Below are positions 2,678-40,867 of a stretch of DNA of 62,946 bases, in pieces (position 1 is the stretch's first letter; each line of letters opens with the position of its first letter). The notes under the pieces were generated by a model. That model saw nothing but the letters and a program-made list of their open reading frames with translations, had not been told where the DNA came from and did no database searches. Where the stretch lies: the IMG/VR virus record IMGVR_UViG_3300045988_087398. One strand, written 5' to 3'. This DNA comes from a virus. The translations under genes and the position numbers were made by a program.

Positions 2678-2705
2678 GTCGCGAATAAAACATGCCTTTT
2701 TATGG
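2678..2705 (+). promoter_or_regulatory. TTCGCG-N14-TATTATGA element, copy A (gtCGCG-N14-TTTTATGG)
   Basis: gtcgcg aataaaacatgcct ttttatgg. Same 14-nt spacing and ACA position as the other copies. The leader is identical to that of copy 7. Confidence 0.6.
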
Positions 2706-2716
2706 AGGTGATATTT

Positions 2717-5657: not shown

Positions 5658-5685
5658 CCCGCGGAAATATCATGCCCTTTTATGA
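5658..5685 (+). promoter_or_regulatory. TTCGCG-N14-TATTATGA element, copy B (ccCGCG-N14-TTTTATGA)
   Basis: cccgcg gaaatatcatgccc ttttatga. Preceded by the partial duplicate gtgcgaataaaacat (compare copy A). The following leader resembles 57854..57880. Confidence 0.5.
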
Positions 5686-5796
5686 GAGGAAAGTGTGATA
5701 TTCTGTATTTCACAACATTTCCTCTTACCTTTGACTTTGGAACGTACTCCGGTGTCCTTCGGGCCCGGGGTCATTTATATTTAAGGAGGGGTTAAA

Positions 5797-6087
5797 GTGA
5801 AAGAGAATAAGTTTCAGGCAGGATTAAAAAAGAAACTTAAAACGATGTTTCCCGGATGTATAGTAACCAAACTCGATTCGAGTGATATTCAAGGCATTCC
5901 AGATTTACTTGTCTTATATAAAGATAAGTGGGCTGCCTTAGAAGTCAAGAAAGAGGCGAAAGCTTCTCATAGACCGAATCAAGATTACTATGTTGAGAAA
6001 ATGAATGAGATGTCATTTTCCAGATTTATATTTCCAGAAAATGAGGAGGACGTATTAAATGAACTTCGTGAAACATTCAAATCTTGA
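5797..6087 (+). CDS. VRR-NUC domain nuclease
   Basis: GTG start after AAGGAGGGG. The GIPDLLVL...ALEVKKE segment is a PD-(D/E)xK core typical of VRR-NUC. Confidence 0.65.
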   Translation: MKENKFQAGLKKKLKTMFPGCIVTKLDSSDIQGIPDLLVLYKDKWAALEVKKEAKASHRPNQDYYVEKMNEMSFSRFIFPENEEDVLNELRETFKS

Positions 6088-6613
6088 GGGGCTTCATGCA
6101 CCATTCAGTGCTAGTCAGTCGGCATGGCTTAGATATGACACTGAAAAAGCACTAACCGTATATGATAATATGCGGGCAAAAGAAAGAGGGACAAAGCTTC
6201 ATGATTGGGCAAAGAGAACTATCGACTTAGGAATCAAACAGCCCAGATCAAATAAAACCTTGTATGCATATGTCAATGATGCTATTGGTTTTAAAATGAG
6301 TACCGAAGTGGTGTTATATTACTCACCATATTTCTTTGGTACAGCTGATGCTATATCATTTAGAAATAATAAATTAAGAATACATGATCTTAAGACTGGA
6401 AAATCTGGTCACATGGAGCAGCTTGAAGTATACGCTGCTCTTTTTTGTTTGGAATACAAAATCAAACCAGGAGATATACAGATGGAGTTACGCTTATATA
6501 AGGACAATGAAGTAATTGTTCATGAGCCAACTGCTGAAGATATTTTACCAATCATGGACAAGATCACGTCTCTTAACAAAGCATTAGAAAACTTTGACGA
6601 CAGGGAGGTGTAG
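6059..6613 (+). CDS. PD-(D/E)XK family nuclease (RecB/Cas4-like fold)
   Basis: GTADAISF...LRIHDLKTGK...QLEVYA reads as a D...D/ExK...Q..Y motif series. Confidence 0.55.
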   Translation: MNFVKHSNLEGLHAPFSASQSAWLRYDTEKALTVYDNMRAKERGTKLHDWAKRTIDLGIKQPRSNKTLYAYVNDAIGFKMSTEVVLYYSPYFFGTADAISFRNNKLRIHDLKTGKSGHMEQLEVYAALFCLEYKIKPGDIQMELRLYKDNEVIVHEPTAEDILPIMDKITSLNKALENFDDREV

Positions 6614-6616
6614 ATA

Positions 6617-9592
6617 TTGAATCCTATTGCAGAAGAAATTGAATCATATCAGGGATGTGGCTCGATGACAACGAACGAATTCCTTGAGCATTATGGAATG
6701 CCTAGAAGATCAGGTAGATATCCATGGGGTTCTGGTGAGGATCCATATCAGCATGAGAGAGACTTCCTTAGTCGAGTTGAAGAATTAAAAGCGACTGGTT
6801 GGACAGAAACTCCGGAGAATATTAAAGAGACATTCGGATTGACGACAACACAGTATCGTACTGAGAAAGCTCTGGCTAAAGATGAACGAAGAATGTATGA
6901 CGTAGCAAGGGCAAAGTCACTCAGAGATGATGGTCTTGGAGCAACAGAGATTGGACGTAAGATGGGTATCAATGAATCGACAGTCAGATCGTTACTTAAT
7001 CCACATTCTGAACAGCGTATGGAGCAGGCGAGAAACACTGCAAAATATTTGAAAGAACAAGTGGATAAGAAGGAAATGGTTGAGGTTGGTACAGGTGTAG
7101 AGCGAGAGCTGAATATTTCAAAGGAGAAATTAGATCAAGCTCTCTATCTGTTGCAGAGAGATGGGTATAACGTTTACAAAGGTGGAATACCACAGGCAAC
7201 CAACCCAGGGCAACAAACAAATCAGCGAGTATTATGCAAGCCTGGAATTGAGCATAAAGAAATATATGATTTCAATAGAGTACAATCCTTGAAAGATTAC
7301 ATTTCGAGAGATGGCGGTGATACTTTTGAAAAGAAGTTCCATTATCCAGAGAGCATGGATTCAAGGCGATTGATGATCCGCTATAAAGAGGATGGCGGAA
7401 TTGAAAAGGATGGAGTAGTAGAGCTTCGTCCTGGTGTTGCTGACTTATCGCTTGGCGAATCTCGTTATTCTCAGGTTCGTATTATGGTTGACGGTAAGAA
7501 ATACATAAAAGGTATGGCTGTTTATGGAGATCCAAAAGATTTTCCCGATGGTATTGATGCCATCTTCAATACAAACAAATCTAAGTCAGTAGCAAAGATG
7601 GATGTGTTGAAAGACATCAAGAATGATCCAGACAATCCTTTTGGTTCACTCATCAAAGATGCTGATCAAGGAGGTCAGTATTGGTATGATGATCCAAAGA
7701 CTGGTAAAAAGAAACTTGGATTGATCAATAAAAGATCCGATGAGGGTGATTGGACTGAATGGAAAGACACGTTACCATCTCAGTTCTTGGCAAAGCAGTC
7801 ATTGAGAATGGCGGGCAAACAGCTGGATTTAGCCAAGGCAGACAGAAGAGATGAGTTTGAAGAGATTAAATCGATCACGAACCCTGTGATTAAAAAACAT
7901 TTCTTAGAGAAATTTGCTGATAGTTGTGATTCAGCATCAGTTCATTTGAAAGCGGCAGCGTTACCGGGGCAGAAATACCATGTAATACTCCCTATCAATT
8001 CTTTAAAGGAGAACGAAGTGTATGCTCCTGGATATACGCCAGGAACTAAGTTAGCATTGATTCGTTATCCGCATGGTGGAACATTTGAAATTCCAATACT
8101 TACTGTTACTGATAAAAATCCAGAAGGTAGAAGAATAATCGGAACCGAATCTATTGACGCAGTCGGTATTAATCACACGGTTGCTGAGCGTTTATCAGGA
8201 GCTGATTTTGATGGTGATACTGTTATGTGTATTCCAACACACGACAAAGCAGGAAGGGTTAAGATCGCCTCAACGCCTCCATTAAAAGGTCTTGAGGGAT
8301 TCGATCCAAAAATGTCATACCCAGAACGTCCCGGTATGAAATATATGAAAGACCCAAAGACTGGTAAAGACAATACTCAGAATGAAATGGGGAGAATTTC
8401 AAACCTTATCAGTGATATGACCTTAGCAGGAGCACCACCAGAAGAAATGGCTAGAGCAGTAAGACATTCTATGGTAGTTATTGATGCTGGAAAACATAAG
8501 CTGGACTACAAGCAAAGTGAGATTGATAACAACATTAAAGCATTGAGAAAAGAGTATCAGGTTAAGACGGATAAGGATGGAAACATTACTGGCTATGGTG
8601 GCGCCGCTACTATCATTTCAAGAAGTAAGGGCGAATCTACAATAAACAAACGCCAAGGTACGCCCAAGATTAATCTTAAGGGTAAAGAATGGTATGACCC
8701 AAGCAGACCTGAAGGTGCACTTATCTATAAAGATGCAGATAACCTATACTACCCAGATCGTAAGCAAGAGAAAGGTATCGTGGAGTTACGTACCGTGGAT
8801 GGTAAAAAAGTAACCTACTCCTATGCCGATAAGGATGCGGTAGATAGGTATGCCCCAGTAGAGAGGAGAGACCCTGCTACCGGAAAAGTCACATTCACTA
8901 ATAAAGATGGAAGCATAGAGTATCGAACCAAGGTTCATACACAGAAGAGTACCAATATGGCTGATACTGATGATGCATACACTCTAGTATCAAAGGCTAG
9001 ACACCCTATGGAACTTCTATATGCCGATTATGCCAATGATATGAAAGCATTAGCGAATCAGGCACGTGTTGAACTAGCCAATACAAGTAAGGTGGCATAT
9101 AACCGAAATGCCAACACAATGTATAAAGCAGAGGTTAAGTCGTTGGATGAGAAACTTAATAATGCATTATTAAATGCTCCTAGAGAGCGTGCCGCACAAC
9201 GAATGGCTAATGCTGAAGTACAAAAGAAACAATTGGACAATCCTGATTGGAAGTCTGCTGATGTTAAGAAAGCGAGTCAGCAAGCATTAACAAAGTTTCG
9301 ACAAGAAGTTGGCTCTGTCTCGAGAAGAGCTCGAAACATACAGATTACAGACAATGAATGGAAAGCTATTCAAGCTGGAGCAATCAGTGAAAGTAAATTA
9401 AAGAAGATTCTTAATAATGCAGACATTGATGAATTGAGACAACGTGCCACACCAAGACAGACAAAAGCTATGACCGAATCTCAAATCAATCGTGCAAAAG
9501 CAATGTCTTCTTCGAACTTCACATTAAAACAGATCGCAGATGCTTTAGGCGTCTCAACATCAACAGTTTCAAAGTATTTGAAAGGAGCGTGA
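6617..9592 (+). CDS. Candidate YonO/RdRP-like two-barrel RNA polymerase with N- and C-terminal HTH-like segments
   Basis: TTG start after GGGAGGTG. LALIRYPHGG...AVGINHTVAERLSGADFDGDTVMCIP parallels beta-prime NRAPTLHR...[23 protein letters not shown]. HTH-like segments are GATEIGRKMGINESTVRSLL and LKQIADALGVSTSTVSKYL. Confidence 0.5.
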   Translation: MNPIAEEIESYQGCGSMTTNEFLEHYGMPRRSGRYPWGSGEDPYQHERDFLSRVEELKATGWTETPENIKETFGLTTTQYRTEKALAKDERRMYDVARAKSLRDDGLGATEIGRKMGINESTVRSLLNPHSEQRMEQARNTAKYLKEQVDKKEMVEVGTGVERELNISKEKLDQALYLLQRDGYNVYKGGIPQATNPGQQTNQRVLCKPGIEHKEIYDFNRVQSLKDYISRDGGDTFEKKFHYPESMDSRRLMIRYKEDGGIEKDGVVELRPGVADLSLGESRYSQVRIMVDGKKYIKGMAVYGDPKDFPDGIDAIFNTNKSKSVAKMDVLKDIKNDPDNPFGSLIKDADQGGQYWYDDPKTGKKKLGLINKRSDEGDWTEWKDTLPSQFLAKQSLRMAGKQLDLAKADRRDEFEEIKSITNPVIKKHFLEKFADSCDSASVHLKAAALPGQKYHVILPINSLKENEVYAPGYTPGTKLALIRYPHGGTFEIPILTVTDKNPEGRRIIGTESIDAVGINHTVAERLSGADFDGDTVMCIPTHDKAGRVKIASTPPLKGLEGFDPKMSYPERPGMKYMKDPKTGKDNTQNEMGRISNLISDMTLAGAPPEEMARAVRHSMVVIDAGKHKLDYKQSEIDNNIKALRKEYQVKTDKDGNITGYGGAATIISRSKGESTINKRQGTPKINLKGKEWYDPSRPEGALIYKDADNLYYPDRKQEKGIVELRTVDGKKVTYSYADKDAVDRYAPVERRDPATGKVTFTNKDGSIEYRTKVHTQKSTNMADTDDAYTLVSKARHPMELLYADYANDMKALANQARVELANTSKVAYNRNANTMYKAEVKSLDEKLNNALLNAPRERAAQRMANAEVQKKQLDNPDWKSADVKKASQQALTKFRQEVGSVSRRARNIQITDNEWKAIQAGAISESKLKKILNNADIDELRQRATPRQTKAMTESQINRAKAMSSSNFTLKQIADALGVSTSTVSKYLKGA

Positions 9593-9597: not shown

Positions 9598-9849
9598 ATG
9601 AATTATCAATCTTTATTGACAACAACAGATAATCCATTCGATCCATTCGAGCAGTTCACGCAATGGCAATTGTTTGATGCTCAAAAAGGAAGAGATACGT
9701 GTGGTTATTTGATGCGAATTGCCAAAATTTCAGATGATATGTCTGAAGTTGAGTGCGATAAAGAAATAAATCGAGCAATTGATGAAATTATTGCAGAAAA
9801 TCCTTTAGGAATTTACACAAAAGTTACAAAAGAGCTTGTTTTGGGCTAG
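9598..9849 (+). CDS. Hypothetical protein
   Basis: 83-aa ORF with a start 6 nt after the upstream stop. Confidence 0.55.
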   Translation: MNYQSLLTTTDNPFDPFEQFTQWQLFDAQKGRDTCGYLMRIAKISDDMSEVECDKEINRAIDEIIAENPLGIYTKVTKELVLG

Positions 9850-10127
9850 ATATGTGGTGGAAAAAGCATAGAGGGGGGTCTGAAAAAATGCACCCCCTCC
9901 CTGCATCGCCGCCCTCTTTGAAAATTCCCCGGGGGGATTTTTTATATTTGAGTTTCATGATACTTATAAGGGCTTATGATATGGTCTAGTGCACATCTCA
10001 ATGGACCTGCCACCTATTGAGAGTTTGTTAGTTTCTCCTTTCTGTTTTGTGCATCCCTCCGCCATATTATAAGTCTTTATAAGTGTTATGAAACAGTATG
10101 GAAACTATAAGAAAGGAGATCAGAAAC
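9850..10127. other. Candidate cos/packaging-recognition region
   Basis: 278-nt non-coding gap. GC-rich hairpin GAGGGGG(9871)/CCCCCTC(9893), CCCCGGGGGG palindrome, and three TTATAAG repeats. It lies just upstream of the small terminase-like, HNH and TerL genes. Confidence 0.45.
9921..9945 (+). terminator. Rho-independent terminator
   Basis: aaaattcccc-gg-ggggatttt hairpin followed by a T-run. Confidence 0.6.
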
Positions 10128-10943: not shown

Positions 10944-11321
10944 ATGAGCGAAGTCACAAATGCGAACGACAGCATTCTTACATCAATCAAGAAAATTCTT
11001 GGAATACCAGAAGAGCATGAACACTTTGATGCAGATATCATTATGCATATCAACACAGTTTTTATGATTCTCAATCAGCTTGGTGTCGGACCCACTTCTG
11101 GTTTTAAGATTCTGGATAAAACTACGATGTGGGACGACTATTTGAAAAATGATAGTCAGTTAGAAGCTGTGAAATCCTATATGGGTTACAAGGTTCGATT
11201 GATGTTTGATCCCCCATCAAGCTCAGCCATCACAGAGTCAATTAATCGCGTCATTAGCGAGCTTGAATGGAGAATACTTGTGATGGTCGAAAGTAAAAAT
11301 TCTCGAGAGGAGGAATCATGA
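10944..11321 (+). CDS. gp6-like head-tail connector / DNA-packaging (QLRG-like) protein
   Basis: SILTSIKKILGIPEEHEHFDADIIMHINTVFMIL resembles the N-terminus of gp6-like connector proteins. Confidence 0.4.
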   Translation: MSEVTNANDSILTSIKKILGIPEEHEHFDADIIMHINTVFMILNQLGVGPTSGFKILDKTTMWDDYLKNDSQLEAVKSYMGYKVRLMFDPPSSSAITESINRVISELEWRILVMVESKNSREEES

Positions 11322-11971
11322 TGTACGAATATGTATTATGCCATCATGGTGTTCTTGGTATGAAATGGGGTGTCCGTAGATACCAGAATGCTGATGGAAG
11401 TCTTACGTATGCTGGAAAGAAACGAGCATTGAAAATCCAGGACAAATATACAAATTTCACAGAGAATCAAAAGTATCGAAAGAAGAACGGTGATTATACA
11501 TATGCCGGACGTAAGAAGGCTCTGAAGATGCGAGAGAAGTATTCGGCGGTTACTGGTGGAAAGAAATTGACTCGGTTTACACCATCTGGAAAGGCAGTGA
11601 CAAACAAACCAAGAACGTTAGGAGATTTGTCGGACGAAGAATTGAACAAAAAAGTTCAACGTCTGAGATCGGAACGAGATTATTTGGATTTGAATAGACA
11701 AATATCATCGTTAACTCCTAAACATATATCTGCCGGAAAGAAATTTGTAGATGCGATCAAATCATCAGCAGTATCAGTGTTAAAGGATAAAGGCACAAAA
11801 CTTGCTGGAGATTATCTGGATAAGCAGGTTAGAACGAAGTTGGGTATGAATGATGCAGACAACAAAAAAAAGAAATCTGAAAAATTACAGCAGGAAATGC
11901 TCGACGCTAGAAATCGATATAACATCGAAAACTTCAACAGAATGTATAAAGATTTAAAGAATAAAAAATAG
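11318..11971 (+). CDS. Hypothetical protein with N-terminal HHGVLGMKWGVRRY motif and a duplicated TYAG(K/R)K(R/K)ALK segment
   Basis: ATGA overlap with the upstream gene. Internal repeats GSLTYAGKKRALKIQDKY and GDYTYAGRKKALKMREKY. Confidence 0.55.
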   Translation: MMYEYVLCHHGVLGMKWGVRRYQNADGSLTYAGKKRALKIQDKYTNFTENQKYRKKNGDYTYAGRKKALKMREKYSAVTGGKKLTRFTPSGKAVTNKPRTLGDLSDEELNKKVQRLRSERDYLDLNRQISSLTPKHISAGKKFVDAIKSSAVSVLKDKGTKLAGDYLDKQVRTKLGMNDADNKKKKSEKLQQEMLDARNRYNIENFNRMYKDLKNKK

Positions 11972-21286: not shown

Positions 21287-21670
21287 ATGCAGGTGATCAC
21301 ATTTAAGCAGAAGGGCGATTTCTCCAAACTGAATAGTTTCTTTGAAAAAATTAAAGAAACTGTCAAAATAGGAGACCTCGATAAGTATGGACGAGCTGGT
21401 GTCGAAGCACTTGCATCTGCCACACCAAAGGAATCTGGAAAAACTGCGGATTCTTGGTACTACACAATTGAACATGAAAATGGAAAATCGTCGATTAATT
21501 TTCTTAATTCGAACATTAATGACGGCGTTCCGATTGCAATCATATTACAGTACGGGCATGGTACTGGAACTGGAGGCTGGGTCGAAGGAAGAGATTATAT
21601 CAATCCTGCGGTTCAGCCTCTTTTTGATAAGATTGCCGATGATGCTTGGAAGGAGGTTACTAGATTATGA
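21287..21670 (+). CDS. HK97 gp10-like protein (head-tail/tail completion)
   Basis: GRAGVEALASATPKESGKTADSWYY...GTGGWVEGRDYINPA pattern. Confidence 0.6.
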   Translation: MQVITFKQKGDFSKLNSFFEKIKETVKIGDLDKYGRAGVEALASATPKESGKTADSWYYTIEHENGKSSINFLNSNINDGVPIAIILQYGHGTGTGGWVEGRDYINPAVQPLFDKIADDAWKEVTRL

Positions 21671-24600
21671 GTAAGCAAGTTGATGAAAGAATTGTGTCGA
21701 TGCAGTTTAACAACAAACAGTTCGAAGCCAATGTTAAAACTTCTATGTCGACTATTCAGAAACTTAAGCAGAGCTTAAATTTTAAGGATAGTGGAAAGAG
21801 TTTGGAAAATCTTAGCAAAGCGGCAAATGAAGTGAAATTCGATAAGCTTCTGTCTGGAGTTGAGACATTAGAGAAGAGATTTTCTGCAATGGGCATTGTT
21901 GGAATGAGAGTTATCGAGAATTTAACTGATTCGGCGATGCAGATGGTAACCAAAACCAAGAATCTTATAACAAGCACTATTAAACAGGGCGGTATTTCGA
22001 GAGCAACAAACATCGAAAACGCCCGTTTTCAGTTACAGGGATTATTAAAGGATGATGAAGCAGTTGCCGCTGTAATGAAAAACGTAAGCGATTCGGTGGA
22101 TGGCACTGCCTATAGTTTGGATGCAGCAGCAAAAGTGGCATCTCAGTTAGCAGCTTCAGGGATGAGAGCCGGAGACGAGATGTTTTCATCACTAAGAGCG
22201 GTTGCTGGCGTTGCTGCTATGACGAACAGTTCTTATGAAGATATTGGTAGAATCTTTACTCAGGTAGCTGGTCAAGGTCGAATGATGGGCGATCAGTTAT
22301 TGCAGTTATCTGGTAGAGGTATGAATGCAGCAGCTACTTTAGCAGAGCAAATGGGTAAAACAGAGCAAGAAGTTAGAGACATGGTGTCCAAAGGACAGAT
22401 TTCGTTTTCAACATTTGCTTCAGCAATGGATAATGCATTTGGAGAGCATGCCAAGAAGGCGAATGAGACATTGAATGGCGCGTTCTCCAATGTTAAATCA
22501 GCATTAGCCAGAATCGGTGCCGAATTTGTTGCACCACTTATTGTTCAGAATGGTCCACTTGTACAAGTCCTCAACACAATACGAGAGAAAGTAAATGATG
22601 TCAAGAGAAACATTGTTCCATTTGCTGAATTGGTTACAACTACAATCAATAAGCTTGCAACCAAGGTAAATGCTGCAATTTCAAAGTTGAATATTGACAA
22701 GATGTTTGAGAAATTCAATTTCTTAAGTAGAGATTTCGGCGCGAGTAAGATTATCAAGCTGGTGGATGGAATATCCAAGCCAATTGAGAAAGTCACAGAT
22801 ACTGTGAAAGAAACTGTCAACGCAGTAACCGATTTGGATGACATTGTGAATAAAGTTATTCGTGGAGATTTTGGTAATGGAGCAGAAAGACTCGATAAAC
22901 TAACCGAGGCAGGACAGAACTATTATAGAGTTCAAAATAGAGTAAATGAGGTACTCAATAATGGTTTCAGATTTTCAGAAGATCAAATACAGGCCCAGGA
23001 CAAACTCCTTGGGATTCAGGAAAATACTGTTTCCGAGACAAAGAGCGAAACAACAGAAACTGTTAAATTGACAGAGGAGAAGAAGAAACTTATTAAAGAA
23101 CTTGCTGGTATGAGTGATGCTCAGCTGAGAGCAAACGGATATACTGAAGAACAAATCGCTGCATTCAGAGAGCTGAGAGGAGTTGCTAATAAGCTTGGTA
23201 TACCGATAGACAAGCTTATTGACAATATTGATGAGCTGAATGGTAAGTGGATTATTATGGACGCGCTGAAGAATATAGGAAATAGCATTGTTTCAATATT
23301 CAAGGCGATTGGACAGGCATGGAAGGATATCTTTCCATCGTCTTCTGCCGATACAGTGTTTAATATTGTAGCAGCATTTCATAAGTTATCCGAGAGAATG
23401 AAGGTAACTGATGAAGATGCAGATAAGATAAAACGTACATTTAAAGGTCTTTTCGCAGTATTAGATCTGGTCAGCACCCTTGTTGGCGGCGGTTTAAGAT
23501 TAGCATTAAAAGCTACGTCTTACATACTTAGTCTTTTCAATTTATCGTTATTGGATGTCACGGCAATACTCGGTGATGCCTTAGTTAAATTCAGAGATTG
23601 GATTAAAGGTAATAATCTAATTACAAAAGCGTTCGAAACTATGGCTCCATATTTGAAGGAGTTTGTATCACTGGTTGTCGAAGGAATAGTTGCAATCAAA
23701 GATTGGATCGTCGCCAATGAAAAGATCACTCAGGGATTTAAGAATATTCTTTCATATCTTAGAGAGGCTGGAGCAGGATTTAAGGCATGGGTTGAAGGTG
23801 CTAGAGAAGCAGAGAATATACCAGTATATATAATCCAGGGATTGGTAAATGGGTTAAAGAATGGTATTTCCACAGTTGCATCTATTGCAATAGAGTTGGC
23901 AAAATCAATTATTCAGACTGTTTGTGGTGTCCTTGGGATTCATTCGCCATCTACTGAATTTTATGCAATTGGTCTGTACATAATTCAGGGATTGATAAAT
24001 GGTCTTAAAGCAGGAGCCAAGAAAGTATGGGATACTGTCAAATCAATTGGCGAAGCTATCATTGGTGTTGGAAAAGAGATCGATTACAAATATCTTGGCA
24101 TTAGCACAACAGCATTGGGACTGTTGATAGTTCTTAACAAATTTACTAATGCTGTAACAGATATCAAGGAAAAGGTAATCGATGCAGGTCTTGGTGTTGT
24201 TAATAGCATATCTTCAATATTTGATAGCATCAGTAAATATATCAAAGCACGAGCATTGAAACAACAGGCAAAAGCGCTGTTACTGTTAGCAGTTTCAATT
24301 GCTGCTCTTGGGGCGACAATATATTTCATTTCTCAAATAGACACAAAGAGTTTGATTAAAGGCGGAATTGCTATTGGTGTTTTAGCTGGAATGTTAATCG
24401 GTCTTACTGTGGCTATGAGTAAATTGGATAAGCTCGGTGTATTCTCCGATAAAGTTGGGGTGATGTTACTCGGAATGTCTGTCGCTTTGTTGGCAATGGG
24501 AAAAGTTGCGACAGAAATCGGAAAACTTGAGTGGGAAGAAATAACAAAGGGAATCGTGTTTGTCGGTGCTTTGGAATTATTCATCATAAGTCTGATTGCA

Positions 24601-27600
24601 ATATCTAAGTTTGCTGGCACTAATGCTAAAGATGCAGGAAAGATGATTTTTAAAATTGCTGGAGCGCTTTTGATTATGGCCTTAGTTGCAAAATTGGCTG
24701 GTAATTTAAGAAAAGACGAGCTGACACAAGGATTAAAATTCATTGCTGTAATGGGTATCTTTACAACTGCATTAGTGGCGGTGTCTTTAGTTGCGGGAAA
24801 GAATGCATCTAGGGCCGGAACCATGATTCTTAAGATCGCCGGGGCGTTACTTATTATGGTAATGGTTGCTAAAATAGCGGGGAACATGAAACCAGAAGAA
24901 TTATCACAAGGGTTAGAATTCATTGAGATAATGGGAATATTTACGGCTACATTAGTTGCTGTATCTATACTTGCGGGAAAGAATGCATCTAGGGCTGGCA
25001 ATATGATTCTTAAAATTGCAATAGCTTTGCAGATTATGGCTAAAGTGGTAAAAACTATTGGACAGTTAAAACCTGATGAAGTTGAGAAGGGATTAAGTTT
25101 CATAAAGACTTTGGGTAAGTTTATAGTGGCATTGGTCGCAGTGTCATTATTGGCTGGAAAGAATGCATCTAAAGCAGGTGTAATGATGATTGGTGTGGCT
25201 ATAGCGATGGGAGTTATGGCACATGTCGTCAAAATGGCTGGAAGTATTGATGAAAACACGCTTAAACAGGGACTCAAAGTAATGGCTGTATTTGAGGTAT
25301 TTATTCTTGCACTTGTCGCAGTATCAATCTTAGCTGGTAAAAATGCGGCAAAGGCTGGCGAAATGTTGTTAAAAGTTTCGGTGTCACTATTAATTCTCAC
25401 AGGCGCATTGTTCTTGATTGGACAGATGGATTCGAAGAAGTTATGGAAAGCTGTTGGTGTAGTAGCAGTATTAGAGACTTTGTTTGCGGGTTTGATTGCG
25501 GTTACGAAGGTGTCTCAGAATGCAAACAAGACAATTATAGGACTTGTCGCAACACTGACGTTACTTGTTTCTGGCTTGGCATTACTTACCACACTTAATT
25601 CGGATAAGCTTGTTGCATCAGCAGAATCTTTATCTATGGTTATGGTAGCGATGGCAGCAATGATCGCAGCAACCGGGCAAATTAAGAATACTGAAGGAGC
25701 GACGAAGGTTCTTCTTCAGATTTCGTTGGTGGTTCTCATGTTGGTCGGTGTTCTTGGAATGATTCAGGCACTTAATATAGAAGGAAATATGGGTGCAGTT
25801 GCTTCAATCTCCGTATTGTTGGTTTCTATGGCAGCGTCATTAGCTCTCTTGGGAAATACGAAGGATATATCGCTTAAGGCTGTTGGTGCCATGGCATTGA
25901 TGGGATTGGTCGTTGCAGAATTAGCGGTTGTAATGAAAGCAATGGATAAACTCAATATTGATGTGTCTACAAAGACTGTTGCTCAATTGTCAGCTTTACT
26001 TCTTGCTATGTCTGGCGCATTAGTGATTCTGACTGTTGTCGGAATCGGTGGTGCCGCTGCATTTGTGGGGATTGGTGCGTTAGTGACATTGATAGCCGCA
26101 GTTGGTGGCTTGATGATAGCGATAGGCGCATTAAATGATGAATTTCCAGCTGTCGCTGATTTTGTACATAATAGTATCCCAATTCTTCAAGATATGGGTG
26201 AAGGCCTCGGTAATTTCATCGGTGGTTTAGTCGGTGGTGTTATTGCTGGTGCTATTGATAGTCTTGCTGGCATAGGCACAAGTCTTAGTACATTCATGGA
26301 AAATCTTCAGCCGTTTATCGAGAAGGTATCGGCTATTGATCCAGATGCTATGGCTGGTGGAGAAGCGTTGGCAAAGATGCTACTTACTCTTACGGCCGCA
26401 GAGCTTGTTAGTGGATTATCCAAATTTTTGGGAGTAAAAGATTTAGGAAATCTTGGATCCCAACTTTCGGATTTCGGCGATGCAATTATTGCATTTTCAG
26501 ACAAGCTTAATAATAGCGATGGTATAAACGATAAAGCTGTCCAAAAAGCTGCAAAAGCAGGTGAGATGATGGCTAAGCTTCAAAATAGCTTATATGGAAC
26601 TGGTGGATTAAAACAAGATATATTTGGCGAAAAAGATTTGGGCGACTTTGGACAGCAGATGAGTGATTTTGCAGATGGAATTATTGCGTTTGCCGCTAAG
26701 ATCGAAGCTGCAAAAATTAACCAAGATTCTGTTGACGCGGCAGCTTATGCTGGTGAAACCATGGCTACTCTTCAGAGCAAGATCAAAAGTCAAAATGGAG
26801 CACTTCAAGACATCTTTGGTTCTCAAGATCTTGGCGATTTCGGATCGCAGATGAGTAACTTTGCAGATGGGGTTGTTAATTTTGATAAGAAACTTAAGGC
26901 TAATAATGGGATTAGCTCAGACCTTGCCGATCAAGCTGCTTATGCAGGAAACGTAATGGCAGAGTTACAAAATAATACTGGAGCTATTGGTGGTGTAGTA
27001 AAATATTTTGCTGGTGAAAAGAATCTAGGTACTTTCGGAACCCAAATTGCACTTTATGGCTCAGCTTTAGCCGCATTTTCTCAGGTATTGTCAGAAAACC
27101 CGGTAGACACAACAACAGTTTCAATAGCTAAGGACTGTGGATTATTGATGACAGAACTTCAGACGGCTTTGCCAGAGACTCATCTATTCGATGGAAAGAT
27201 GGATCTGGATGATTTCGGAGCTAAGCTAATGTCATTTGGTAAATATATGGGTGTGTTTGCTAACATGACAGCTGAAATGGATGTGTCCAATCTCACGACA
27301 GTCAGTATGGCGGCTAAGAGACTTGGCGAAATGGCAGCATCAATCAGCACAGTAGACCAATCAAAAATTGACGAATTTGATTTCGAGGGCATTGGAAACA
27401 GCATAAAGACATTCTGTGATTCATTTGATAACGTCGACGCTTCAAAGGTTGAAACAGCAATCAACTCAATCAATAAGTTGGTTAACACAATCAAGAGTAT
27501 GGATGGGTTGAACACTAATGGAGTAAACACCTTTAAGGGAATTCTTAATTCACTCAGCGGTGACACAGTAAATCTTAAGGGTATTGGTAATTCATTCTCA

Positions 27601-28509
27601 GATGATCAGATCGCATCATTCAATTCAATTGGCTCAAGTGTTGTGAGCGCAATTGCTTCAGGTATGAAGAGCAAGTCAAGTGAATTTACGAGTATCGGAC
27701 ATTCAATACTCAGCAGCATCAAGAGTTCCTTGAATTATAATATTCAGCAGTTCAAAACCAGTGGAGAGACAATCATGTCGAACTTTGTTAGCGGAATAAA
27801 AGGTTCAAGAAATACGGCATCATCAGCATTTACATCAATGATGGCATTCATCACTCTGAGTCTGAAGGGTTATTATAATAACTTCTACACTATTGGAGGT
27901 TATCTTGTTACGGGATTCGCAAATGGTATATCGGCTAGTGCATATAAAGCTAAAGCAAAAGCTAAGGACATGGCCAAAGATGCGGAGAAGGCTGCACGAG
28001 AAGAATTGCAAGTTCATTCACCATCTAAGAAGTTAGACAAAGTTGGACAGTATTTCGGCATGGGATTTGCTAATGGTATTGATAAGAAATCACATCTCAG
28101 TGTTCAAGCAGCAAAGACTATGGCCGCATCAGCTATCGACAGTACAAAGCAGACAATCTCGAGATTAGGTCAGATGCTTGCAATGGATGTTGATGCTCAG
28201 CCTACAATCAGACCAGTAATGGATTTGAGCGACATTAATTCTGGTGTAGCAACTATGAATGGGATGCTTGCTATGAATCCATCCGTTGGCGTAATGACAA
28301 ATATTGGAGCAATTAACGCATCAATGAGAAATCGTCAAAATGGAAATGCAAATGATGTGATATCAGCTATCAATACACTTGGTAAAACACTCGGTAATAC
28401 ACGAGGCGATACATACATTATTGATGGCATTACGTATGATGACGGAAGCGGCATAAACGATGCAGTTCAAACACTCATTAGAGCAGCTAGAATAGAGAGG
28501 AGGATGTAA
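21667..28509 (+). CDS. Tape measure protein (2280 aa)
   Basis: Largest ORF, sited between the chaperones and Dit. N-terminal TMP-type helical region, a long hydrophobic repeat core, and an ATGA start overlap with the upstream gene. Confidence 0.9.
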   Translation: MSKQVDERIVSMQFNNKQFEANVKTSMSTIQKLKQSLNFKDSGKSLENLSKAANEVKFDKLLSGVETLEKRFSAMGIVGMRVIENLTDSAMQMVTKTKNLITSTIKQGGISRATNIENARFQLQGLLKDDEAVAAVMKNVSDSVDGTAYSLDAAAKVASQLAASGMRAGDEMFSSLRAVAGVAAMTNSSYEDIGRIFTQVAGQGRMMGDQLLQLSGRGMNAAATLAEQMGKTEQEVRDMVSKGQISFSTFASAMDNAFGEHAKKANETLNGAFSNVKSALARIGAEFVAPLIVQNGPLVQVLNTIREKVNDVKRNIVPFAELVTTTINKLATKVNAAISKLNIDKMFEKFNFLSRDFGASKIIKLVDGISKPIEKVTDTVKETVNAVTDLDDIVNKVIRGDFGNGAERLDKLTEAGQNYYRVQNRVNEVLNNGFRFSEDQIQAQDKLLGIQENTVSETKSETTETVKLTEEKKKLIKELAGMSDAQLRANGYTEEQIAAFRELRGVANKLGIPIDKLIDNIDELNGKWIIMDALKNIGNSIVSIFKAIGQAWKDIFPSSSADTVFNIVAAFHKLSERMKVTDEDADKIKRTFKGLFAVLDLVSTLVGGGLRLALKATSYILSLFNLSLLDVTAILGDALVKFRDWIKGNNLITKAFETMAPYLKEFVSLVVEGIVAIKDWIVANEKITQGFKNILSYLREAGAGFKAWVEGAREAENIPVYIIQGLVNGLKNGISTVASIAIELAKSIIQTVCGVLGIHSPSTEFYAIGLYIIQGLINGLKAGAKKVWDTVKSIGEAIIGVGKEIDYKYLGISTTALGLLIVLNKFTNAVTDIKEKVIDAGLGVVNSISSIFDSISKYIKARALKQQAKALLLLAVSIAALGATIYFISQIDTKSLIKGGIAIGVLAGMLIGLTVAMSKLDKLGVFSDKVGVMLLGMSVALLAMGKVATEIGKLEWEEITKGIVFVGALELFIISLIAISKFAGTNAKDAGKMIFKIAGALLIMALVAKLAGNLRKDELTQGLKFIAVMGIFTTALVAVSLVAGKNASRAGTMILKIAGALLIMVMVAKIAGNMKPEELSQGLEFIEIMGIFTATLVAVSILAGKNASRAGNMILKIAIALQIMAKVVKTIGQLKPDEVEKGLSFIKTLGKFIVALVAVSLLAGKNASKAGVMMIGVAIAMGVMAHVVKMAGSIDENTLKQGLKVMAVFEVFILALVAVSILAGKNAAKAGEMLLKVSVSLLILTGALFLIGQMDSKKLWKAVGVVAVLETLFAGLIAVTKVSQNANKTIIGLVATLTLLVSGLALLTTLNSDKLVASAESLSMVMVAMAAMIAATGQIKNTEGATKVLLQISLVVLMLVGVLGMIQALNIEGNMGAVASISVLLVSMAASLALLGNTKDISLKAVGAMALMGLVVAELAVVMKAMDKLNIDVSTKTVAQLSALLLAMSGALVILTVVGIGGAAAFVGIGALVTLIAAVGGLMIAIGALNDEFPAVADFVHNSIPILQDMGEGLGNFIGGLVGGVIAGAIDSLAGIGTSLSTFMENLQPFIEKVSAIDPDAMAGGEALAKMLLTLTAAELVSGLSKFLGVKDLGNLGSQLSDFGDAIIAFSDKLNNSDGINDKAVQKAAKAGEMMAKLQNSLYGTGGLKQDIFGEKDLGDFGQQMSDFADGIIAFAAKIEAAKINQDSVDAAAYAGETMATLQSKIKSQNGALQDIFGSQDLGDFGSQMSNFADGVVNFDKKLKANNGISSDLADQAAYAGNVMAELQNNTGAIGGVVKYFAGEKNLGTFGTQIALYGSALAAFSQVLSENPVDTTTVSIAKDCGLLMTELQTALPETHLFDGKMDLDDFGAKLMSFGKYMGVFANMTAEMDVSNLTTVSMAAKRLGEMAASISTVDQSKIDEFDFEGIGNSIKTFCDSFDNVDASKVETAINSINKLVNTIKSMDGLNTNGVNTFKGILNSLSGDTVNLKGIGNSFSDDQIASFNSIGSSVVSAIASGMKSKSSEFTSIGHSILSSIKSSLNYNIQQFKTSGETIMSNFVSGIKGSRNTASSAFTSMMAFITLSLKGYYNNFYTIGGYLVTGFANGISASAYKAKAKAKDMAKDAEKAAREELQVHSPSKKLDKVGQYFGMGFANGIDKKSHLSVQAAKTMAASAIDSTKQTISRLGQMLAMDVDAQPTIRPVMDLSDINSGVATMNGMLAMNPSVGVMTNIGAINASMRNRQNGNANDVISAINTLGKTLGNTRGDTYIIDGITYDDGSGINDAVQTLIRAARIERRM
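24613..25512 (+). repeat. Five tandem 180-nt (60-aa) repeats inside the tape measure gene, each a hydrophobic helix pair
   Basis: Units start at 24613, 24793, 24973, 25153 and 25333. Each reads AGKNAS(R/K)AG.M(I/L)LKIAGALLIM...(P/K)(E/D)EL.QGL.FI..MGIF..LVAVS.L. Confidence 0.85.
26440..27390 (+). repeat. Five tandem ~190-nt (~64-aa) repeats inside the tape measure gene (DLGDFG.QMS.FADG...)
   Basis: Units start at 26440, 26635, 26827, 27022 and 27202. Confidence 0.8.
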
Positions 28510-36734: not shown

Positions 36735-37985
36735 TTATTGTATTTTTTCTAAGTCTTCTCTAAGCCACTCTACATCTCTTTCGGTGTAAGTGGATTCGGT
36801 TATATCTTGGATATTATGTCCAACCATCTCCTTTAAAGCATATTCGTCTACGTTTGCTTTCTTACATCGAGTGATAAATGTTTTTCTTGGATCGTGAGGT
36901 CTATGCTCAGGATTCAATTTCAATTGCTGTATCACCTTCGTAAAGCGGTTCTTATATTTGTCGTATGTAACAGCATAAGAACCGGCATGTGTTTGTCCTT
37001 TATCATTGAATAGATAAGGGCTTCCTAATTCTATTGCTTTGTCATAATTCATTTTCACAAGCCCTTTTATTTTTGCGTGGATGGGGACGATACGTTGTTT
37101 GCCAGCATTCGTCTTCATTCCGGCTTTCATATACCATTCATCCATATTCACCTCATCAAGACGTAAGGTAGCGAGTTCCTGTGGTCGCCACCCCATATAC
37201 ATCTGAATAATCACCCAATCAGCATATTTTACAACTCCTATATTTTTCCACAATTTATCAATTTCATCTTCGCTGAAAATAATATGTGGTTTCTTAGAGT
37301 TTTCGATATTCTCAACTATGTCGTCAGATAAGTTGAACGTCCGGGCATAATTCTTATCTACAATCTCATATTCTTCAGCGTAATCAAGCAATAGATTGAA
37401 CGTAGATTTAATTCTCGATTTAATCCCTGGGGATGGGTAAATCTTTTTGTCTTTTTCCTTACCTTTTGTTCCTATTCGATATCCTTCCTCGATGCATCCT
37501 TTTATGTGCCGGGCTCTAACGTCTTTTGCTCTCATGTCATATATGGACGAGCAATATGACCACGCTGCTGTAACAGATCGAGTAGCGGACGGCGATATGC
37601 CAGAAAAATATTCTTTGCTCCATTTCATATACAACTCTTTCACTGTTAAATCATTATTCAAGTCATAAGGATTTCGTCTGTACTCCATCAATGCTTCGTA
37701 TGCCTCGTTGTATGTTGGGAAATAGCAAGTTGGCTTTAACTGTTTCAAAATAGGTTTGCCATCTGGTGTCTTTCCAACTGTAACTCTGGCTCTAAAACGA
37801 TTTCTCAATGGTTTGTTTTTAATCTCAGTAATACTTCCAAAGCCATTAGGCAATCGTCGTCGCTTAGTTGTCCTTGGACGAACCTGCGATTGTTTTGAGA
37901 GCGGATAACCACAATGCGGACAAGTTAGTGCTTTATCGCTGACCTGTAATTCACATTCTGGACATTTTGTGAGCATAAGCATCAC
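36735..37985 (-). CDS. int: Tyrosine integrase with N-terminal zinc ribbon and AP2-like arm-binding domain
   Basis: CPECELQVS...CPHCGYPL; LPNGFGSITE...RFRARVTVG...FPTYNEAYEAL; catalytic WRPQEL...HDPRKTF...VGHNI...STYTERD. Confidence 0.9.
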   Translation of the reverse strand: MMLMLTKCPECELQVSDKALTCPHCGYPLSKQSQVRPRTTKRRRLPNGFGSITEIKNKPLRNRFRARVTVGKTPDGKPILKQLKPTCYFPTYNEAYEALMEYRRNPYDLNNDLTVKELYMKWSKEYFSGISPSATRSVTAAWSYCSSIYDMRAKDVRARHIKGCIEEGYRIGTKGKEKDKKIYPSPGIKSRIKSTFNLLLDYAEEYEIVDKNYARTFNLSDDIVENIENSKKPHIIFSEDEIDKLWKNIGVVKYADWVIIQMYMGWRPQELATLRLDEVNMDEWYMKAGMKTNAGKQRIVPIHAKIKGLVKMNYDKAIELGSPYLFNDKGQTHAGSYAVTYDKYKNRFTKVIQQLKLNPEHRPHDPRKTFITRCKKANVDEYALKEMVGHNIQDITESTYTERDVEWLREDLEKIQ

Positions 37986-39514: not shown

Positions 39515-39540
39515 CGCGTAGAAAACAGATTGTTTTATGG
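39513..39540 (+). promoter_or_regulatory. TTCGCG-N14-TATTATGA element, copy 1
   Basis: ttcgcg tagaaaacagattg ttttatgg. Its first 18 nt are shared with copy 7. Confidence 0.6.
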
Positions 39541-39575
39541 AACTATAATTTATATTTTTAAGGAGGAACAATATT

Positions 39576-39911
39576 ATGGAGATGAAGAGTTTAGGAACTT
39601 GTTATTTGTACGAGGTTACAAAAACAGGAATGACGAAATGCTTCGGAGAGGTTTTTCATCAGGATGCGATTACCAAAGAAGATGGACGCACCATACCTGG
39701 GACGACCGCATTTCGACCTCAGCAGGGAGGATCGGTTATTGTGGCGTCCGAGGAAGGATGCATTCTTGATGGTACGATCTGGTATTATGACGATGAACCG
39801 GAAGAAGCGCTTAAGAAGCTGTATAAAGCAGAACGTGCAAAATTAGCAAGACTCAACAATGATGTCTATCGACAGGAAATGATTGTGCTTAATCTTAAAG
39901 CAAAATTATAG
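39576..39911 (+). CDS. Hypothetical protein (cassette ORF, 111 aa)
   Basis: AAGGAGGAAC RBS. Flanked by element copy 1 and the terminator at 39919. Confidence 0.6.
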   Translation: MEMKSLGTCYLYEVTKTGMTKCFGEVFHQDAITKEDGRTIPGTTAFRPQQGGSVIVASEEGCILDGTIWYYDDEPEEALKKLYKAERAKLARLNNDVYRQEMIVLNLKAKL

Positions 39912-39918
39912 AAGGATC

Positions 39919-39948
39919 GAGCCCCTAACAAGGGCTCTTTCTTTTTTT
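39919..39948 (+). terminator. Terminator of the shared GAGyCC-TAACA-GGrCTC family
   Basis: gagccc-ctaacaa-gggctc hairpin followed by TTTCTTTTTTT. The T-tract runs into element copy 2. Confidence 0.7.
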
Positions 39949-39975
39949 ACGCGAAAATTACATTTCCTATTATGA
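39948..39975 (+). promoter_or_regulatory. TTCGCG-N14-TATTATGA element, copy 2
   Basis: tacgcg aaaattacatttcc tattatga. 32 nt are identical to copy 5. Confidence 0.6.
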
Positions 39976-40016
39976 AAACAAAGACAACATATCATAAAAA
40001 GGAAAGGATGATTATT

Positions 40017-40085
40017 ATGTTAAAACTATTTGTAATAGTAGCATTTATTATTGCAGGAATTTGGTTTGTTGAATGTGTTGATTAA
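40017..40085 (+). CDS. Micro-ORF, 22-aa single-TM peptide (MLKLFVIVAFIIAGIWFVECVD)
   Basis: AAAAGGAAAGG RBS. Bracketed by element copy 2 and the terminator at 40090. Confidence 0.45.
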   Translation: MLKLFVIVAFIIAGIWFVECVD

Positions 40086-40089
40086 GGAG

Positions 40090-40117
40090 GAAGTCCTACA
40101 TGGGCTTCTTTCTTTTG
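40090..40117 (+). terminator. Terminator of the shared hairpin family
   Basis: gaagtcc-tacat-gggcttc hairpin followed by TTTCTTTTGTTTT. Confidence 0.6.
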
Positions 40118-40119
40118 TT

Positions 40120-40147
40120 TTCGCATAAATATCATCCTATTCTATGG
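40120..40147 (+). promoter_or_regulatory. TTCGCG-N14-TATTATGA element, copy 3 (degenerate: TTCGCA...TTCTATGG)
   Basis: ttcgca taaatatcatccta ttctatgg. The spacing is the same. Confidence 0.45.
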
Positions 40148-40159
40148 GAGGTGAGAACA

Positions 40160-40599: not shown

Positions 40600-40614
40600 A
40601 AAGGAGTGATTTAT

Positions 40615-40862: not shown

Positions 40863-40867
40863 ATTTT

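Follow-up and report, generated by a model that had tools for sequence, protein, structure and literature searches.

Two-barrel (double-psi beta-barrel) single-chain RNA polymerases are thought to be akin both to the common ancestor of the cellular RNA polymerases and to the source of the eukaryotic RNAi polymerases. We know of only four phage enzymes of this type that have been characterised: YonO, crAss gp66, P23-45 gp96 and gp64. The gp66 protein of crAss-like phage phi14:2 and gp96, a tape-measure fusion, read conserved intergenic early promoters and are physically tied to virion proteins. YonO, a single-chain two-barrel protein of ~100 kDa from the Bacillus prophage SPbeta, is a proven DNA-dependent late-gene transcriptase; its gene immediately precedes the terminase/portal late operon, which the enzyme transcribes (PMC5467207). 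Members of the superfamily share an invariant R-x-P before the DxDGD of the beta-prime-like barrel (Rpb1 R446/P448; QDE-1 R962/P964) and, in the beta-like barrel, an invariant trio of an acidic and two basic residues (QDE-1 D709, R738, K743) (PMC2919709).

A further phage family, PHROG 4291, has already been predicted to consist of two-barrel polymerases by Ruprich-Robert & Thuriaux (2010; PMC2919709) and by Koert et al. (2021; bioRxiv 10.1101/842583), who also noted HTH domains at both ends and obtained an HHpred match of the family alignment to PF05183 with a probability of 95.7%. The PHROG itself is annotated as "RNA-dependent RNA polymerase", and relatives appear in GenBank as 'RNA-dependent RNA polymerase', 'putative RNA polymerase' or, in many records, only as 'helix-turn-helix DNA-binding protein'. 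The polymerase interpretation that we develop below is thus not new; what is new here is a promoter-like motif, the position of cos, and portal-linked variants of the polymerase together with a likeness of its N-terminal peptide to a head-module protein. Our literature searches found no usable experimental work on the PHROG 4291 family, DUF7211 or the virion proteomes of 1706-like phages, and no biochemical or transcript evidence or published polymerase assay for any family member.

The window, a stretch of 62,946 nucleotides of viral DNA, contains a gene for a 991-aa protein that matches PHROG 4291 over its full length (E = 0, 1208 bits, with aa 17-990 covering positions 6-907 of the 909 in the profile). 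The nearest record in the phage database, MT835495, is 60% identical, and a megablast search of the phage collection returned no match. The 'RdRP-like HTH proteins' of Lactococcus phage 1706, Faecalibacterium phage FP_oengus and an actinophage supercluster belong to the same family (full-length identity 36-60%) and resemble the protein in their HTH-core-HTH layout, in the order Cas4-polymerase-small gene-genome end and in the promoter-like motif; they differ in host and lineage only, the phage described here being a temperate phage of gut Clostridia. The parts of the gene are as follows.

6617..9592, + strand: putative single-chain two-barrel polymerase gene, 991 aa, with HTH modules at both ends (sequence, profiles, model)
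6905..7000, + strand: N-terminal HTH module, aa ~97-128 (Sigma70_r4_2 and HTH_28 at aa 105-127; model helices 109-116 and 120-126)
7364..7651, + strand: predicted first (beta-like) barrel, aa ~250-345, with D265/R288/K298 (invariant columns; model beta strands 252-318)
7964..8251, + strand: second (beta-prime-like) catalytic barrel, aa ~450-545 (alignment, model, structure matches)
8375..8497, + strand: two long, highly conserved helices past the catalytic barrel, aa 587-627, MGxISNLIxDM...AVRHSMVVIDAxKH (invariant columns; model)
9464..9586, + strand: C-terminal HTH module, aa ~950-990 (HTH_23 E 3e-8, Sigma70_r4 E 7e-7, HTH_38)

The open reading frame starts with TTG, 3 nt past the stop codon of the upstream exonuclease gene, and encodes the peptide LALIRYPHGG...AVGINHTVAERLSGADFDGDTVMCIP on which the original prediction of a single-chain two-barrel RNA polymerase had been built. 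Within this peptide, R483-Y-P485 (nt 8063-8071) supplies the superfamily R-x-P, and D530-F-D-G-D534 (nt 8204-8218) supplies the Mg-binding DxDGD loop. In 118 homologues with identities down to 44%, R483, P485, D530, D532 and D534 do not vary; these homologues are a diverse sample of a large family (~1500 clusters at 50% identity), which occurs commonly in Clostridia prophages of the human gut and is present in hundreds of easily grown isolated actinophages. D265, R288 and K298 are likewise invariant in these homologues (as are K321 and K332), and the eight residues, which agree with the eight-residue set of PMC2919709, are also invariant across six phages of two phyla. Judged by sequence, the RxP...DxDGD match to two-barrel enzymes is not due to chance. 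D265, R288 and K298 are the putative counterparts of QDE-1 D709, R738 and K743. The distance from R483 to D530, which had been likened to that of other two-barrel enzymes, is 47 residues, slightly above the 45 of QDE-1 (R962 to D1007; PMC2919709) and longer than the ~35 that we counted in the beta-prime string quoted alongside the prediction.

Pfam and NCBIfam scans of the protein returned HTH matches alone, and hmmscan gave no match to PF05183 (Pfam RdRP) at E <= 1. A search of solved structures by sequence, whether with the protein, the full alignment or the core alignment, gave HTH matches or noise and nothing else; a weak match to 8h2n (P23-45; E 0.66) was confined to the DFDGD stretch. 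The full-length AlphaFold (AF2) model (pLDDT 83.1, pTM 0.73) had as its eight best Foldseek matches in the PDB only QDE-1 and RDR2 entries (E 8e-7, for QDE-1, to 1.5e-2), followed by the largest subunits of multisubunit RNA polymerases. The core-only model was poorer (pLDDT 72, pTM 0.41) and still served for local comparisons: it matched QDE-1 five times (E 1e-6 to 5e-5) in alignments of 510-580 columns that cover both predicted barrels, and it gave local double-psi barrel matches to designed DPBB proteins, the p97 N domain, Pol IV NRPD1 and E. coli beta-prime, those to NRPD1, beta-prime and the designed proteins falling on the predicted barrel at aa ~450-545. Helices 587-604 and 608-627 of the full-length model may correspond to the bridge-helix region. 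The models thus support assignment to the two-barrel polymerase fold.

Neurospora QDE-1 and plant RDR2, the best structural matches, are single chains with two double-psi barrels in the order predicted for the phage protein. They differ from the phage protein in that HMMER detects no sequence similarity, in that they lack HTH modules, and in that they act in RNA silencing whereas the phage gene belongs to a dsDNA phage. Global TM-scores are low (0.24), which indicates that the domain arrangement differs from that of QDE-1. The two HTH-like segments that had been proposed near the termini are both real, with Pfam HTH_23, Sigma70_r4 and Sigma70_r4_2 matches above gathering scores at aa 105-127 (nt ~6929-6997) and aa 950-990 (nt ~9464-9586).

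The protein had also been described as YonO-like, and this holds for its architecture and genome position but not for its sequence. In hhalign the two profiles gave a probability of 0.3% and an E-value of 0.21 over 82 columns around RxPH...DxDGD only, which is not significant, although YonO ILRSPH...FDNDGD falls on the columns of the RxP and DFDGD motifs. BLASTP against YonO gave an E-value of 0.84, and there were no Bacillus records among the 250 tblastn matches listed. By sequence, then, the polymerase family is separate from that of YonO.

We classified the surrounding genes and the DNA downstream of the polymerase by profile matches and by comparison with relatives.

5797..6087, + strand: VRR-Nuc-type endonuclease gene, first of the polymerase operon (phrog_93 endonuclease, E 3e-16)
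6059..6613, + strand: Cas4/RecB-like exonuclease gene, adjoining the polymerase gene on its upstream side (phrog_3953 exonuclease, E 2e-71)
9598..9849, + strand: small gene, 83 aa, after the polymerase gene (phrog_4303, E 6e-31)
9862..9943, no strand: cos region, with the cut placed after ~9915, between CTGCATCGCCGCCCT and CTTTGAAAATTCCCCGGGGGG (alignment to relatives and phage termini)

A VRR-Nuc gene is annotated at the equivalent place in Egad and Scap1, the exonuclease-polymerase pair is kept in FP_oengus, Egad and Mudcat, and a small gene comes next after the polymerase gene in every relative looked at, namely FP_oengus, Egad, Mudcat, Scap1 and P092. The cos region is 84-92% identical in DNA to relatives whose proteins are just 50-65% identical. 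Positions 9862-9943 line up with the right-hand physical termini, ending in CTGCATCGCCGCCCT, of the packaged DNA of four phages with linear genomes, those of Streptomyces phage Scap1, Arthrobacter phages Egad and Mudcat, and Lactococcus phage P092, which places the cos cut near 9915/9916, ~323 nt past the polymerase stop codon, and bears out the proposal that the gene sits just upstream of cos. A hairpin at 9920-9942 was considered as a terminator and is more likely a part of cos, as it matches the left ends of actinophage genomes. The polymerase gene is the last large gene before cos, at the right genome end after the Cas4-like exonuclease, and this placement is conserved. Once the genome is circularised, the operon of the polymerase and the two nucleases stands directly upstream of the structural (late) operon (10098-36394), which is ~26 kb long and almost gapless.

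Computation here thus gave the predicted fold, the full set of invariant active-site residues, an HTH module akin to sigma region 4 at each terminus, and the conserved placement before cos; the first three are consistent with the original reading. Taken together, they make it probable that the protein is a catalytically competent single-chain two-barrel polymerase, most likely one that transcribes phage genes as a DNA-dependent RNA polymerase.

The coding (+) strand of the window carries 18 copies of a motif of ~30 nt, CGCG-N5-wwACA-N5-yWTWATGr.

2680..2713, + strand: motif copy running straight into GGAGG and ATG (33.1 bits)
5660..5693, + strand: promoter-like motif, variant CGCGGAAATATCATGCCCTTTTATGAGAGG, ahead of the VRR-Nuc / Cas4-like / polymerase operon (PWM 34.1 bits)
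39515..45921, + strand: fourteen motif copies in a small-gene block (starts 39515, 39950, 40122, 40345, 40561, 41184, 41636, 42321, 42739, 43026, 43283, 43577, 44527, 44834 and 45888, less one counted elsewhere)
57836..57869, + strand: motif copy after the helicase gene (32.1 bits)

In a PWM scan the 18 sites scored 20.7-42.5 bits and the best minus-strand score was -1.2; the motif written as a regular expression gave 14 sites against 0.36 expected. Copies stand ahead of small-gene units, replication-gene units and the polymerase operon. Those of the small-gene block are all on the + strand, 20-60 nt ahead of a ribosome-binding site and start codon, and several adjoin a T-run hairpin. The motif is kept in register in phages that have the polymerase gene and whose DNA is otherwise unalignable (Faecalibacterium FP_oengus, Arthrobacter Egad, Streptomyces Scap1 and Lactococcus P092). 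Related Clostridia prophage loci hold, over 306 kb, 36 matches on the + strand and 0 on the minus strand, and in 21 of 24 such loci the motif stands ahead of the polymerase operon, with 0.9-1.0 kb between it and the polymerase gene; it also precedes the operon in FP_oengus (at 27684) and Egad (L002:4117). Scans of phiC31 and of the SPbeta region showed it to be absent there. The recognition helix of the N-terminal HTH, NES(T/S)VR, is retained in phages with the CGCG-bearing motif, whereas in P092 the helix is SPGSVT and the motif lacks CGCG; this co-variation concerns that one lineage only.

We considered whether wwACA and TATAAT could form a sigma-70 -35/-10 pair, and rejected this reading because the spacer between them is just 5 nt; the gap from CGCG to TATAAT is 14 nt. 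A good TATAAT-like hexamer occurs within the motif in three of the five phage groups, and the hexamer of FP_oengus, TTTATG, is without A-11 and T-7. In several copies a Shine-Dalgarno sequence begins 1-4 nt past the hexamer. Possibly the motif is a promoter used by the host RNA polymerase, with a leader that is short or missing. That it is instead the promoter of the two-barrel polymerase appears to us about an even chance. In that case the N-terminal HTH would recognise CGCG, recognition of the wwACA/TATAATG part would fall to either the core or the C-terminal HTH, and RNA would start at the purine run immediately after TATG. Transcription of the late operon, in and ahead of which the PWM scan found no motif copy, would depend on read-through that begins in the polymerase operon and passes the joined cos, or on another promoter. 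The presence of the motif ahead of the polymerase's own operon creates a bootstrap problem, above all at prophage induction, and the first enzyme molecules would be made by the host polymerase or brought by the virion. A similar logic may apply in the T7-like and N4 single-subunit RNA polymerases, where one polypeptide reads a long contiguous multi-copy promoter with a purine-rich start; these enzymes have an unrelated right-hand fold, and the likeness is one of analogy only. A candidate promoter, two candidate reader domains and their natural co-variation make the polymerase-promoter model directly testable, and if the enzyme reads this promoter unaided, it would provide a compact, orthogonal, sigma-independent transcription module for Firmicutes and Actinobacteria.

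Alternatively, the protein may be a late-gene polymerase of the YonO type, made in mid-infection and transcribing only the long structural operon from a single promoter near cos, with the motif serving as an unusual host-polymerase promoter of early and middle genes. The position of the gene directly upstream of the late operon, like that of yonO (PMC5467207), fits this alternative, as does the length of the almost gapless operon, which would suit a processive enzyme; the motif does hold a TATAAT-like hexamer, and the early genes of a prophage need to be read by the host polymerase. However, when a late promoter was sought between cos and the first late gene, the cos-proximal block alone was conserved, and a motif-like stretch near 10046 was below the PWM threshold. 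Nor does this explanation account for the in-register conservation across phyla of CGCG and wwACA, which are not sigma-70 elements, and the Shine-Dalgarno sequence in several copies is too near the hexamer for a sigma-70 start site. We consider it unlikely. A role in replication or recombination, as a primase-like or RNA-dependent RNA polymerase acting on ssDNA or RNA together with the VRR-Nuc and Cas4-like nucleases, would agree with the database name and with the nearest folds, which are those of cellular RdRPs; QDE-1 takes ssDNA and RNA templates (PMC9508822). Yet the phage has its own large primase/helicase-type protein, encoded by a primase-polymerase-type gene at 49899..54089 that is so annotated in Egad and Scap1, and we down-weighted a primase role for this reason. 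Two HTH modules of a sequence-specific type also suit promoter or site recognition better than priming, and the characterised phage two-barrel enzymes are all transcriptases, so that this role seems very improbable. Least credible of all is a catalysis-free, polymerase-derived DNA-binding protein, such as a transcription regulator or a cos-binding packaging factor using the HTH modules, for while the GenBank 'helix-turn-helix' names, the adjoining cos and weak sub-threshold matches to small-terminase families over aa 820-989 (phrog_309 E 2e-3, phrog_7067 E 6e-4) point that way, invariance of the Mg-binding aspartates, RxP and first-barrel D/R/K in the 118 homologues is unexpected for a dead enzyme, and head-module variants keep the core without either HTH module.

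These variants, and a peptide at the N terminus of the polymerase, bear on how a DNA-dependent RNA polymerase of this kind might reach the cell.

6677..6736, + strand: conserved N-terminal peptide, aa 21-40, EFLEHYGMPRRSGRYPWGSG (H25, G27 and S32-G40 invariant or nearly so; disordered in the model)
11318..11971, + strand: head-module protein, 217 aa, encoded immediately ahead of the large terminase gene, with the DUF7211 N terminus HHGVLGMKWGVRRY (PF23847, E 1.5e-8)

The peptide, which has pLDDT < 50, resembles DUF7211 (hhalign 78.7% over 13 columns; Pfam E 0.05), and related peptides occur at the N termini of 1-4 proteins beside the terminase and portal in Egad, Scap1 and MT835495. In one metagenomic contig (L034) the polymerase core is fused to a portal domain, and in another (L035) it directly follows the portal gene inside the head module; the core is retained in these variants and both HTH modules are missing. 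A motif scan of the two contigs was uninformative, as they contain structural genes only. The portal-linked variants and the DUF7211-like peptide hint at virion delivery. We tentatively suggest, as a rather unlikely extension of the model, that the enzyme is packaged in the capsid, is delivered with the DNA and then acts as a self-contained promoter-specific transcription system. The N-terminal xFLxHYG...WG peptide common to the small head-module proteins would target it to the capsid, direct portal fusion or adjacency would replace this peptide in one lineage, and after delivery the two sigma-region-4-like HTH modules would read the ~30-nt promoter, which is near-constant across phages of Actinobacteria and Firmicutes. 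Like gp66 and gp96, the portal-adjacent and portal-fused variants appear to be physically tied to virion proteins; in contrast to the phages of those enzymes, the genome here is that of a temperate cos siphophage with an integrase. If the enzyme is indeed packaged and acts in this way, ordinary-sized temperate siphophages would have their first virion two-barrel RNA polymerase, and no earlier one would have sigma-like promoter readers built in. Host-independent transcription could also explain how a phage supergroup that keeps its G+C content 20-30% lower than its hosts do (Koert et al., bioRxiv 10.1101/842583) has crossed phyla. The related Clostridia loci are integrated prophages, and the integrase gene of the window lies at 36735..37985.

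The original prediction had read the 6617-9592 region as a two-barrel RNA polymerase gene, and the ORF listing bore out the gene itself, a 991-aa ORF on the + strand with a TTG start codon 3 nt past the stop of a Cas4-like exonuclease gene. Its RYP...GADFDGD peptide is present (R483, Y484, P485, D530-F-D-G-D534), and none of R483, P485, D530, D532 and D534 varies among 118 aligned homologues with identity down to 44%, so the motif is not a chance match. The two segments described as HTH-like match Pfam HTH families at aa 105-127 and aa 950-990, with HTH_23, Sigma70_r4, Sigma70_r4_2 and HTH_38 among the matches above gathering scores. PHROG 4291 ("RNA-dependent RNA polymerase") covers residues 17 to 990 (1208 bits). 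Full-length relatives were found by tblastn in 250 phage records, from phages of Arthrobacter, Gordonia, Streptomyces, Lactococcus, Curtobacterium, Microbacterium and Rhodococcus as well as Faecalibacterium phage FP_oengus, under annotations that vary between RNA-dependent RNA polymerase, putative RNA polymerase and HTH DNA-binding protein. A search with a profile of the core returned 1513 representatives of clusters built at 50% identity, 780 with E below 1e-30. Three homologues of 1054-1072 aa (P0281, P0317 and P0407) carry an extra N-terminal 2H phosphoesterase domain (2'-5' RNA ligase-like, PF13563).

HMMER searches of Pfam, NCBIfam and PDB sequences matched only the HTH domains, and the structure was therefore predicted, using the 118-sequence alignment, in which the sequence in the first row (P0001) agrees with the window protein at all but 4 of 991 positions. 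The full-length model (mean pLDDT 83.1, pTM 0.73) was compared with the PDB by Foldseek, as had been proposed; QDE-1 (7y7p_A) came first (E 8.4e-7), followed at ranks 2-8 by maize and Arabidopsis RDR2 and then by the largest subunits of Pol II and Pol III. Among predicted viral structures, the best matches were uncultured-phage proteins named RNA-dependent RNA polymerase. A core-only model (aa 240-700) gave five QDE-1 matches (E 1e-6 to 5e-5, 510-580 columns) and local matches of ~70-112 residues, mostly at rmsd ~3 Å, to Pol IV NRPD1, the p97 N domain, designed double-psi barrel proteins and E. coli beta-prime. These matches to QDE-1 and to isolated barrels support the prediction that DFDGD lies in a double-psi barrel. 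A beta-rich domain at aa 250-345, with D265, R288 and K298 invariant, very probably forms the second barrel; we infer that these three residues are the counterparts of QDE-1 D709, R738 and K743, which belong to the eight-residue set of Ruprich-Robert and Thuriaux (2010). We consider it very probable that the window protein is an active polymerase of the two-barrel type; its most probable role is that of a phage transcriptase.

The two-barrel reading is thus correct, though it had already been published as a prediction: Ruprich-Robert and Thuriaux (2010) listed five YonO-like two-barrel families, one of them represented by the phage 1706 protein, and Koert et al. (bioRxiv 10.1101/842583) studied the same family, noted HTH domains at both termini and the DxDGD loop, reported 95.7% HHpred probability against PF05183, and regarded the gene as a signature of a supergroup of actinophages and Firmicutes phages. 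The window protein is a new member of this family, on which we found no experimental work in the literature searched. The label YonO-like holds for architecture and gene position but not for family membership by sequence. When the core alignment was compared with YonO from SPBc2 using hhalign, LIRYPH...SGADFDGD fell exactly opposite ILRSPH...LQFDNDGD; however, the match was not significant (probability 0.3%, E 0.21) and BLASTP found none, which places the two proteins in separate families with a common architecture. YonO transcribes the terminase/portal late operon directly downstream of its gene (PMC5467207), and the window gene likewise lies directly upstream of a late operon.

The ~63-kb genome in the window belongs to a temperate siphophage and is circularly permuted; its genes lie almost entirely on the + strand, and its relatives are integrated prophages in [Ruminococcus] torques, Hungatella hathewayi, Enterocloster lavalensis and Cuneatibacter. 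Its main features are as follows.

Features of the window
5797..6087, +, VRR-Nuc gene, in an operon with the polymerase gene
6059..6613, +, Cas4-like exonuclease gene, in the same operon
6617..9592, +, polymerase gene
9598..9849, +, small conserved gene (83 aa, phrog_4303), last gene before cos
10098-36394, late operon: HNH endonuclease, large terminase, portal, capsid-protease, 2280-aa tape measure
36735..37985, minus, integrase
49899..54089, primase/helicase-type protein, 1396 aa
39515-45888 (14 sites), 57836, 2680 and 5660, +, promoter-like motif sites (PWM)

The operon of VRR-Nuc, Cas4-like exonuclease, polymerase and small gene is syntenic in FP_oengus, Egad, Mudcat and Scap1. The 83-aa gene lies directly 3' of the polymerase gene in every relative examined; its product (9598-9849) has no Pfam match and may be an accessory factor. 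Beyond it, positions 9862-9943 are 84-92% identical among relatives whose proteins are only 50-65% identical, and line up with the right-hand physical termini of four phage genomes, those of Scap1, Egad, Mudcat and P092. Within this stretch, CTGCATCGCCGCCCT reproduces the last 15 bases of Streptomyces phage Scap1 exactly and the right ends of the other three almost exactly. This alignment puts the predicted cos site ~323 nt past the polymerase stop codon, in agreement with the proposed position of the gene just upstream of the packaging region, and the packaging site has been kept between Clostridia and Actinobacteria phages. At least 14 tandem units of an 18-nt sequence (GGTATGTGATAATGCTTG-like) occupy 1-250 and 62864-62946 and run off both ends of the window, which suggests a circularly permuted assembly with the array inside a coding region. 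The tape-measure gene (21667..28509) contains a 180-nt tandem repeat (24634-25173) and a ~195-nt repeat (26419-26884).

Unlike the family prediction, the promoter-like motif (CGCG-N5-wwACA-N5-yWTWATGr, ~30 nt) is new in the present analysis. A repeat search of the window found a multi-copy element of 30-40 nt, and a position weight matrix built from 53 instances identified exactly 18 sites (20.7-42.5 bits), all on the + strand; the best minus-strand score was -1.2. Each site lies 20-60 nt ahead of a ribosome-binding site and start codon. Several sites adjoin a T-run hairpin, which often lies 5' of the motif. The matrix found no copy in the late operon (10098-36394). Two sub-classes are recognisable: copies of the small-gene block read TTACAT..CTATTATGAAA, whereas those before later modules read A(A/T)CATGCCCTTTTATGAGAGG. 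The motif stays in register across five phages whose DNA is otherwise unalignable, and is kept across two phyla in phages with the polymerase gene in common.

Motif copies in the window and four related phages
Window: TTCGCGAAAATTACATTTCCTATTATGAAA
FP_oengus: GACGCGAAAAATACAGCCTCCTTTATGGAA
Egad: TTCGCAnGATTTACACACGTTATAATGAGA
Scap1: TCGCAAGTTTTACATGCATTATAGTGAGA
P092: TTTAAGTTTTACATACCCTATAATGAAAG

Regular-expression counts were 30- to 100-fold above those in shuffled sequences, with zero on the minus strand, while phiC31 and the SPbeta region gave none or one at chance level. All 36 matches in 24 Clostridia loci (L010-L033, 306 kb) were on the + strand, and 21 of these loci have a copy heading the operon, 0.9-1.0 kb ahead of the polymerase gene. 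Two P092 copies (L007 19982-20041 and 20370-20429) have tRNA-like sequence (..GACTTTAGCTCAGAGGTAGAGCG..) within ~12 nt downstream; in this phage the motif thus also precedes RNA genes.

The spacing within the motif is a poor match to a sigma-70 promoter: the TATAAT-like hexamer lies 5 nt from wwACA and 14 nt from CGCG, TTTATG (the hexamer of FP_oengus) is without the two best-conserved -10 positions, and in some copies, 2680 and 42321 among them, the Shine-Dalgarno starts directly after TATG, so that a start site 7 nt past the hexamer would lose it. The motif may be the promoter of the phage polymerase, for which we judge the chances roughly even. Scap1 has no other HTH or sigma protein in its SEA-PHAGES annotation. 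When N-terminal HTH helices were compared (alignment columns ~118-135, window aa ~106-124), the recognition helix was NES(T/S)VR in phages whose motif has CGCG, and SPGSVT in P092 (Lactococcus), the sole lineage among those examined whose motif lacks it; the C-terminal HTH is conserved in all phages aligned.

Hints of virion delivery are also new here, and weaker than the promoter-like motif. Residues 1-45 of the polymerase are disordered in the model yet carry an invariant peptide, EFLEHYGxxRxSGRYPWGSG (window 6677-6736). A related peptide, xFLxHYGxxGMKWG or more generally xFLxHYG..(K/R)..WG (Pfam DUF7211), heads the 11318..11971 protein adjoining the terminase gene, four Egad proteins around the terminase gene (L004 3125, 5364, 5749, 6417), one Scap1 protein (L008 2256) and two in phage MT835495 (L005 7215, 7758); such small proteins number one to four per phage, beside terminase and portal. 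Profile-profile comparison of the two peptides (78.7% probability over 13 columns) is suggestive only of a relationship, and the N-terminal peptide may be a capsid-targeting or portal-binding signal. Portal-linked variants occur in two GC-rich metagenomic contigs, each observed once. In one (L034 1866-7235, P0372), a linker connects the polymerase core to a portal domain (PF04860, E 3e-29) in a single 1789-aa protein, whose gene has a terminase-like gene on one side and the S78 protease and capsid genes on the other; the second contig (L035 229-5658, P0380) encodes a 1809-aa linker-core protein directly after a separate portal gene and upstream of S78 protease and capsid genes. The motif, its co-variation with the reader domain and these variants are leads by inference from sequence comparison, and they make polymerase function directly testable. 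In both variants the core is C-terminal and the HTH modules are absent. The L034 protease gene product also shows a faint match to the PF13563 family.
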